Assembly (NCBI GenBank): GCA_964016885.1
Contig: OZ024743.1
Location: forward strand, 329,034,001 to 329,098,000
Reading direction: 5' to 3'
DNA: 64,000 nucleotides
Source: Eledone cirrhosa
Taxonomy: Eukaryota
In this document: positions 51,592 to 51,695 of the stretch, one piece after another
How positions within the stretch are numbered: position 1 is the first letter of the stretch
Layout: every line of letters starts with the position of its first letter
Translations under genes and position numbers: made by a program
Notes under the pieces: model-generated
The model's input: the letters and a program-made list of their open reading frames with translations, nothing else
Databases searched by the model: none
What the model was told of the DNA's origin: nothing

Positions 51592-51695
51592 TATCCCAAT
51601 AACTTATTTTAGTTATTGTTCGCGCTAGCCCGAGGTATCTGGTCTTTAATGCGAAGAAATACCTCTGATGGCTAGTAGATCACTGATGATGGATA
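51592..51695 (+). ncRNA. Rearranged hammerhead with kink-turn (R1 copy C) in module 51200-51725
   Basis: TATCC CAATAACT..AGTTATTG TTCGCg CTAGCC cGA GGTATC^ TGGTCT ttaat GCGA A GAAA TACC tctGAt GGCTAG t AGATCA CTGATGA T GGATA. Confidence 0.85.

Follow-up and report, generated by a model that had tools for sequence, protein, structure and literature searches.

Type-SGC hammerhead motifs with a four-way junction and a kink-turn, predicted to self-cleave, in putatively Naiad-derived non-autonomous elements of Eledone cirrhosa

The 64,000-nt stretch of Eledone cirrhosa DNA analysed here (the window) holds four copies of a hammerhead motif, a fifth, divergent copy and an internally deleted sixth; in all of them the hammerhead core nucleotides are present in the order cleavage site (block S), GAAA (block G) and CUGANGA (block C) (Table 1). 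This non-circular order had been proposed in a sequence-only reading of the window, and all core nucleotides were indeed found in it. The four copies which that reading had described at 3058-3161, 4645-4749, 4757-4860 and 51592-51695 were located there with their sequences and pairings, although the 4645-4749 copy lies on the minus strand, and the positions it had given for H17 in two of them, 51639 and 3105, agreed with ours. All tested pairs were standard in the 51592, 3058 and 4645 copies, but one stem I pair was broken in the 4757 copy. The proposed CAACGACT/AGCCGTTG hairpin contained one A-C mismatch. In both 51592-51695 and 3058-3161, every pair of the further TCGC/GCGA helix was standard, as were the core-closing pair and the distal helix, and the TCGC/GCGA helix was among those that covaried. 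With a generic S-G-C descriptor the window yielded 4 sites, whereas 100 block-shuffled versions averaged 0.01 (one site, in a single one of the 100). No hammerhead was found among the 114 Rfam matches in the window at E ≤ 1, where the Rfam hammerhead models represent types I-III in circular order. Arranged head to head, the two copies of family C make up a palindrome (window 4578-4896), which would fold as a long double-stranded hairpin on either strand.

Table 1. Type-SGC hammerhead motifs, their parts and their carrier units in the window
Feature	Position	Strand	Remarks
Type-SGC hammerhead motif, family A	51592..51695	+	all tested pairs standard; predicted cleavage after C17 = 51639
5' leader of family A motif	51592..51623	+	helix A strand 51592-96, hairpin B 51597-51618, TCGC 51620-23
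Helix A pairing partners	51592-96 with 51691-95	+	covariation alignment
Helix C pairing partners	TCGC 51620-23 with 51651-54	+	covariation alignment
Distal stem III arm	51625-30, pairs with 51670-75	+	covariation alignment
Non-bulged kink-turn strand	51631-33 (3n, G2n, A1n)	+	3n = C here, U in family majority
Block S	51634..51645	+	stem III strand 51634-38, C17 51639, stem I strand 51640-45
5-nt linker, then helix C strand 51651-54, position 11.1 = 51655	51646..51655	+	
Block G	GAAA 51656-59, stem III strand 51660-63	+	
Kink-turn bulged strand	bulge 51664-66 (TCT; family TAT), G1b A2b U3b 51667-69	+	
Distal arm 3' strand	51670-75	+	
Block C	stem I 51677-82, CUGAUGA 51683-89, position 10.1 = 51690	+	
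Helix A 3' strand	51691-95	+	
Internally deleted SGC copy	51903..51981	-	without distal arm and start of block S
SGC motif, family B	3058..3161	+	predicted cleavage after 3105
SGC motif, family C	4645..4749	-	H17 4701, core CTGAAGA; inverted partner of 4757-4860 copy
SGC motif, family C	4757..4860	+	H17 4804; one broken stem I pair
Divergent SGC motif, family D	about 4983-5093	-	H17 5036, GAAA 5018-21, CUGAUGA 4988-94
Family A non-coding unit	51175..51730	+	about 556 bp, TA-flanked, predicted ribozyme near 3' end
(TA)n tract at 3' junction of family A unit	51726..51805	.	
Family B unit, 5'-truncated	2697..3211	+	followed by (TA)n 3212-3567
Family D unit, 5'-truncated	4895..5116	-	holds divergent SGC motif

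Read 5' to 3', the copy at 51592-51695 opens with one strand of helix A, followed by hairpin B, TCGC and the distal arm. Block S and a 5-nt linker come next, then GCGA, block G and the bulge, and the motif closes with the strand that pairs with the distal arm, block C and the second strand of helix A. The covariation indicated that the strands after CUGAUGA and before GAAA pair with separate leader strands around hairpin B, which gives a four-way junction. Stem II itself is a single covarying pair, 10.1-11.1 (A-U in 28, U-A in 15, U-G in 5 and other combinations in 5 of 53 copies), with U-A in families A and C, A-U in family B and G-U in family E. The usual hammerhead pair at 10.1-11.1 is G-C, and this was observed only in family D, after a bulged A. 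The four-way junction replacing stem II and the kink-turn in stem III had been missed in the sequence-only reading. Nested folding predicted competing local pairs, with z-scores of only -1.3 to -3.6.

Covariation was assessed on 53 of 58 dereplicated copies, the other 5 being truncated or carrying deletions; family D, which is in a different register, was kept out of this alignment. Over the 35 proposed pairs, 93.7% of cells were paired, compared with 28-45% in slid controls, and both sides had changed in 20 of the 35 pairs, with such changes in all 7 helices. None of 500 shuffles reached the percentage paired or the covariation score, whereas for the number of further pair types 25 of 500 did so. 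The sequences tested are also those that yielded the structure, and the shuffles overstate significance because the copies are related. To allow for this relatedness, a second count was made on 8 in-register family groups (family D left out), in which 2 of 176 cells were broken and 10 of 22 pairs were compensatory. Both-side changes were found in 3 of 6 stem I pairs and 1 of 5 stem III pairs, to which family D adds GAUG/CAUC. The covariation claimed earlier for the named helices was upheld in this larger alignment, stems I and III included. Identity between families A, B and E was 73-79% in the ribozyme and 58-63% in the rest of the unit (54-59% when shuffled), while the ribozyme of family D was 56-59% identical to those of other families, no more similar than sequence outside it. 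Among 120 BLAST-centred copies, the core (CUGANGA, GAAA and UH) was intact in 110 (A 28/30, B 30/30, D 27/30, C 25/30), and these core elements were fixed in all family majorities while the stems turned over.

Beyond the core, stem III continues through a 3-nt bulge, a G-A pair, an A-G pair and usually a U-U pair into the distal arm. The standard kink-turn pattern is described as a C-stem, a 3-nt bulge, G-A and A-G pairs and an NC stem (PMC5061560), and all of these are present in stem III at the level of sequence. Without selection for a kink-turn, U at L3 followed by GA was found in 104 of the 110 core-intact copies (A 28/28, B 30/30, D 22/27, C 24/25); this count is free of the selection filter, to which the invariance of 1b and 2b in the main alignment is partly due. 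Most families have U-U at 3b-3n and U at L3, as in the box C/D type, and the two strands resemble boxes C and D in sequence. The likeness to standard and box C/D kink-turns (PMC5061560, PMC4382518, PMC5689011) thus extends to the bulge, the G-A and A-G pairs and the usual U-U pair; the structure differs from standard kink-turns in lying within stem III of a natural hammerhead and in having U at 2n in family D and one further group. In family B, G occupies both 3n and -1n. No natural kink-turn within a hammerhead stem III was found in the available text of the literature matches listed. Two kink-turn positions, L2 and 3n, show private changes in the 51592 copy, and these let extra Watson-Crick pairs compete; the best copy for testing is therefore not this one but that at 3058.

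At least five families were found to carry the SGC motif. In the 3.0-Gb genome, an exact pattern gave 5,842 matches (control 0) and a second, disjoint exact pattern gave 9,657 (control 34). A relaxed core pattern gave 22,602 matches (control 236), a count that includes at least one family (F) not parsed as SGC. The copy number of the motif was put at about 20,000. Family F repeats (L381:1420-1560 and L383) have the same GAAA...TGA...CTGATGA spacing with periods of about 520-540 bp; their block S was not parsed. Outside this genome, a metagenome pattern scan returned at least 120 loci, of which 5 passed a loose pairing filter and none was convincing; viral contigs gave 0 matches to the CSG pattern and 7 to the SGC pattern; and model R1, run over 100 of the 127 metagenome and viral loci (all but L244-L270), gave one match only, at E 0.22.

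The units that carry the motif are pyrimidine-rich and non-coding, with a longest ATG frame of 51-109 codons. Tandem periods were 551-575 bp in family A and 604-617 bp in family B, and the tandem monomer was 575 bp long in family A, 617 bp in B, 753 bp in D and 497 bp in E. Of the 30 loci taken per family, 8 in family A had a tandem neighbour and 6 an inverted one; the corresponding numbers were 11 and 10 in family B, 4 and 8 in family C, and 3 and 7 in family D. The 3' ends of the units adjoin (TA)n; families A, C and D have two end classes about 40 nt apart, while in family B the ends fall mainly at a single position, 56 nt beyond the core. The insertion 3' ends lie 35-90 nt downstream of the motif and do not coincide with the predicted cleavage site. 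The traits found, namely tandem and inverted pLTR-like copies, 5' truncation, a tail and a microsatellite target, are those of non-autonomous Penelope-like elements (PLEs), whose tandem/inverted layout and tail (PMC8557442, PMC11167929) match the units here. The residence of the motif in a TA-inserting retroelement, as proposed earlier, is supported by the tandem and inverted copies, the tail and the (TA)n junctions; the genome-wide copy number and the Naiad link considered below had escaped that reading. In family B, the 40 candidates scored matched the window copy without a single difference over 121 nt, and on this sequence identity the family is judged to be very young.

The sequence-only reading had raised the question whether published rearranged hammerheads cover this motif. 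Eckert et al. 2023 (PMC10085705) defined the blocks S, G and C and validated types SGC and CSG, and the block order found here is that of their type SGC (HRIMA-1), so the permutation itself is not new; the fold differs. Likeness to HRIMA-1 lies in the S-G-C order, the complete core and the short linker that connects stem I with the stem II side. Published SGC RNAs are described as about 65-104 nt long, with a contiguous stem II and an 'I' helix, and as cleaving at the predicted site on their own (PMC10085705). In contrast, stem II here is split into a four-way junction, stem III holds a kink-turn, and neither a contiguous stem II between blocks G and C nor an I helix flanking block C was found. 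The copies do not fit the published descriptor, which asks for CGAAA, for CUGAUGA(U)G and for two or more additional pairs in stem II. According to the available text of PMC10085705, the published SGC sequences came from metatranscriptomes only, none from the genomes of known organisms, whereas the motif here is genomic and present in about 20,000 copies. The term 'type-SGC' together with 'hammerhead' was found only in PMC10085705 in a full-text literature search, most subscription journals being outside its scope, and PMC13725137, in the part available, mentions alternative permutations only in passing.

The carrier units also resemble non-LTR retrozymes (PMC7229834; bioRxiv 10.64898/2026.07.22.740005), which likewise are non-coding tandem units with one hammerhead each and are proposed to be PLE derivatives. 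Those have type I hammerheads and units of about 150-450 bp; here the hammerhead in each tandem unit is of type SGC, not type I, and the units measure 497-753 bp.

Among PLEs, a correspondence was found with Naiads. Craig et al. 2021 (PMC8557442) described Naiads as being without canonical hammerheads, some entries being flagged 'HHR_core' or 'HHR_half_core', and cephalopod Naiads as long inactive. The last ~500 nt of 26 of the 54 published Naiad consensi were read by eye, each end being assigned to the entry preceding the next header. Non-circular hammerheads could be parsed in 11 of these 26 3' ends, a fraction that is not an estimate for the clade because the choice favoured flagged entries. 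Six were SGC (Naiad_Obim, Naiad_Ovul, Esco, 2_Movir, 3_Chem and Bfor, the last with a stem I of only 2 bp) and five were CSG (Hcon, Hpol, 2_Nbra, 3_Nbra and Smim). By eye, the ends of Naiad_Obim and Naiad_Ovul have the same layout as the units here, including a hairpin with a TATTTT loop and the kink-turn, and those of 2_Movir and 3_Chem have the same four-way junction. In the other 15 of the 26 ends (3_Dst, Omin, Adux, Parc, Sdum, CGi, Tama, 1_Chem, 4_Chem, Ppla, 2_Chem, 1_Movir, Ppac, 1_Dst and 2_Dst), no non-circular hammerhead was parsed over the same ~500 nt; Ppla was partial, and 1_Dst resembled a circular-order variant. No permuted hammerhead in Naiads is reported in the literature found, as far as its available text goes; figures and supplements beyond that text could bear on this. 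Beyond the SGC layout read by eye, the units share with Naiads (PMC8557442) the (TA)n targeting, tandem and inverted copies, 5' truncation and tail, but they contain no RT or GIY-YIG frame, whereas the Naiad clade has an N-terminal GIY-YIG + RT frame. These likenesses suggest a Naiad origin of the units.

An intact autonomous partner carrying the SGC motif was not found in the genome; 40 of 94 ORFs from 120 loci were scanned with Pfam in this search. A Naiad motif search of the genome returned three heavily decayed relics without 3' ends (L388 at C7:20772200-, L397 and L398), one of which resembles the published octopus Naiads, and the 5' end of L388 was essentially single-copy. Octopus-Naiad (Ovul-type) motifs gave 0 matches in the genome, and comparison of the units with 19 PLE 3' UTRs showed no similarity beyond TA-rich stretches. 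Several candidate associations were rejected. The GIY-YIG beside a family B copy (L035) and the frames beside copies in L342 and L365 proved to be independent insertions, as did the arrangement behind a 2.9-kb spacing in L386, and in 85 PLE-centred or extended loci the SGC copies were separate TA insertions.

Neptune-like and Hydra-like PLEs are abundant in the genome. Neptune-like RT + GIY-YIG frames of 500-1096 codons are present, also in TA tracts, while the Naiads of this genome are relics, which would be expected if the units were instead an independent retrozyme-like lineage that reached the SGC order by convergence and is mobilised by Neptune-like PLEs. The Neptune-like and Hydra-like 3' UTRs contain minimal type I-like cores or none, not SGC, and the detailed match to octopus Naiad ends in hairpin loop, kink-turn and spacing argues for descent; a non-Naiad origin therefore appears unlikely. 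The youth of family B, with Naiads here being relics, suggests non-autonomous elements that outlived their Naiad parent, and our best guess is that family B was mobilised after a switch to a Neptune-like helper. A change of partner once the Naiads had decayed would be consistent with the Naiad and the non-Naiad view alike.

Taken with the fold, these data make it likely that the motif is a self-cleaving type-SGC hammerhead at the 3' end of Naiad-derived non-autonomous PLEs, which would cut their tandem transcripts. As judged from the covariation, a normal three-helix hammerhead core would form, its stem II pair 10.1-11.1 being continued by the four-way junction from the 5' leader (helix A, hairpin B and helix C). 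The kink-turn would bend stem III back, and the distal arm would join the distal ends of stem I and helix C via 1-, 1- and 5-nt linkers. With this fold-back and such short linkers, the knotted order would be feasible in one molecule, and the closed cage would replace the usual loop I/loop II contact. Transcripts through tandem units would be cut after H17 into unit-length RNAs, which may circularise as in non-LTR retrozymes; type I hammerheads are reported to process the tandem transcripts of those elements (PMC7229834, bioRxiv 10.64898/2026.07.22.740005). A PLE reverse transcriptase and GIY-YIG endonuclease acting in trans would then copy the RNA into (TA)n sites, copying presumably being initiated at internal positions some 35-90 nt 3' of the core.

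The same chemistry might require, for assembly of the core, a strand-swapped dimer of two units in a tandem transcript or the help of a protein, either Snu13/15.5K bound at the box C/D-like kink-turn or the PLE protein. The box C/D type seen in most families (U-U at 3b-3n and U at L3) would suit this, since box C/D kink-turns are reported to fold only with L7Ae (PMC5689011); the hammerhead of the anole Poseidon PLE (PAc) is described as protein-assisted (PMC11167929), and minimal PLE hammerheads have been reported to cleave as dimers. Against it, the G at 3n in family B permits ion-induced folding (PMC4382518) and is accompanied by G at -1n, published SGC RNAs cleave alone (PMC10085705), and the short linkers fit a monomeric cage, so that a dimeric or protein-assisted active form is considered improbable.

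Some observations speak against simple processing. The insertion ends lie off the predicted cleavage site, and an atypical pair occupies 10.1-11.1. In the anole PLE, hammerhead cleavage is reported to need the protein and to be dispensable for insertion in vitro, with no RNA-seq ends described at the PAc site (PMC11167929). The insertion ends, the atypical pair and the dispensable PAc cleavage would also be compatible with a fold retained because a PLE protein recognises it or uses it to position the RT, its catalysis weak or lost; this is very unlikely in view of the conservation of the catalytic residues (CUGANGA, GAAA and UH) while the stems turn over. Assembly of a canonical core across three tandem units was rejected, as it would need 500-nt loops.

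If the self-cleaving, Naiad-derived hammerhead is correct, non-circular hammerheads, previously a few hundred environmental sequences of unknown hosts, would be abundant in animal genomes and reside within a defined retrotransposon clade. The apparent hammerhead loss in Naiads would be explained by a reordered core invisible to standard descriptors, and entire families would have escaped surveys of retrozymes and PLEs that considered type I alone. The cage of four-way junction and kink-turn would be a new structural solution for the hammerhead core, and the motif may be a natural protein-switchable ribozyme. A broader proposal, which we advance tentatively and regard as rather doubtful, is that the Naiad clade kept its ribozyme as non-circularly permuted hammerheads, the cage-type SGC being common to ctenophore, cnidarian and cephalopod elements and CSG occurring in nematodes and a spider; here, the box C/D-like kink-turn would make self-cleavage depend on a host L7Ae-family protein (Snu13), giving a natural protein-gated hammerhead in about 20,000 copies.

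Other hammerhead-like motifs were observed in the window. Canonical-order, type I-like motifs with an AT-rich stem I, belonging to another repeat family, are located at 47222 (-) and 28735 (-), and similar ones were found at L283, L294, L303 and L347. Canonical-order hammerhead-like cores with a paired stem II are present at 41058 (+) and 52787 (-). A minimal type I hammerhead-like core at 3735-3800 (-) matches a Neptune-like PLE 3' UTR (L339, L344). The motif at 4262-4332 (-), like that at L354:7740-7820, is type I-like with CAGAAGA replacing CUGANGA and corresponds to a Hydra-like PLE 3' end; CAGAAGA also occurs in a Neptune-like family (L337, L345). Among (TATG)n tracts, a frame with a partial RT and a zinc finger (9431-10900, +) and another with C2H2 zinc fingers (11701-12669, +) probably represent a non-LTR retrotransposon. 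Long satellite arrays occupy 15612-18463, 31517-33068, 36505-37917, 38575-39433 and 54152-61029, with periods of 3-9, 28, 53, 50 and 29 bp.
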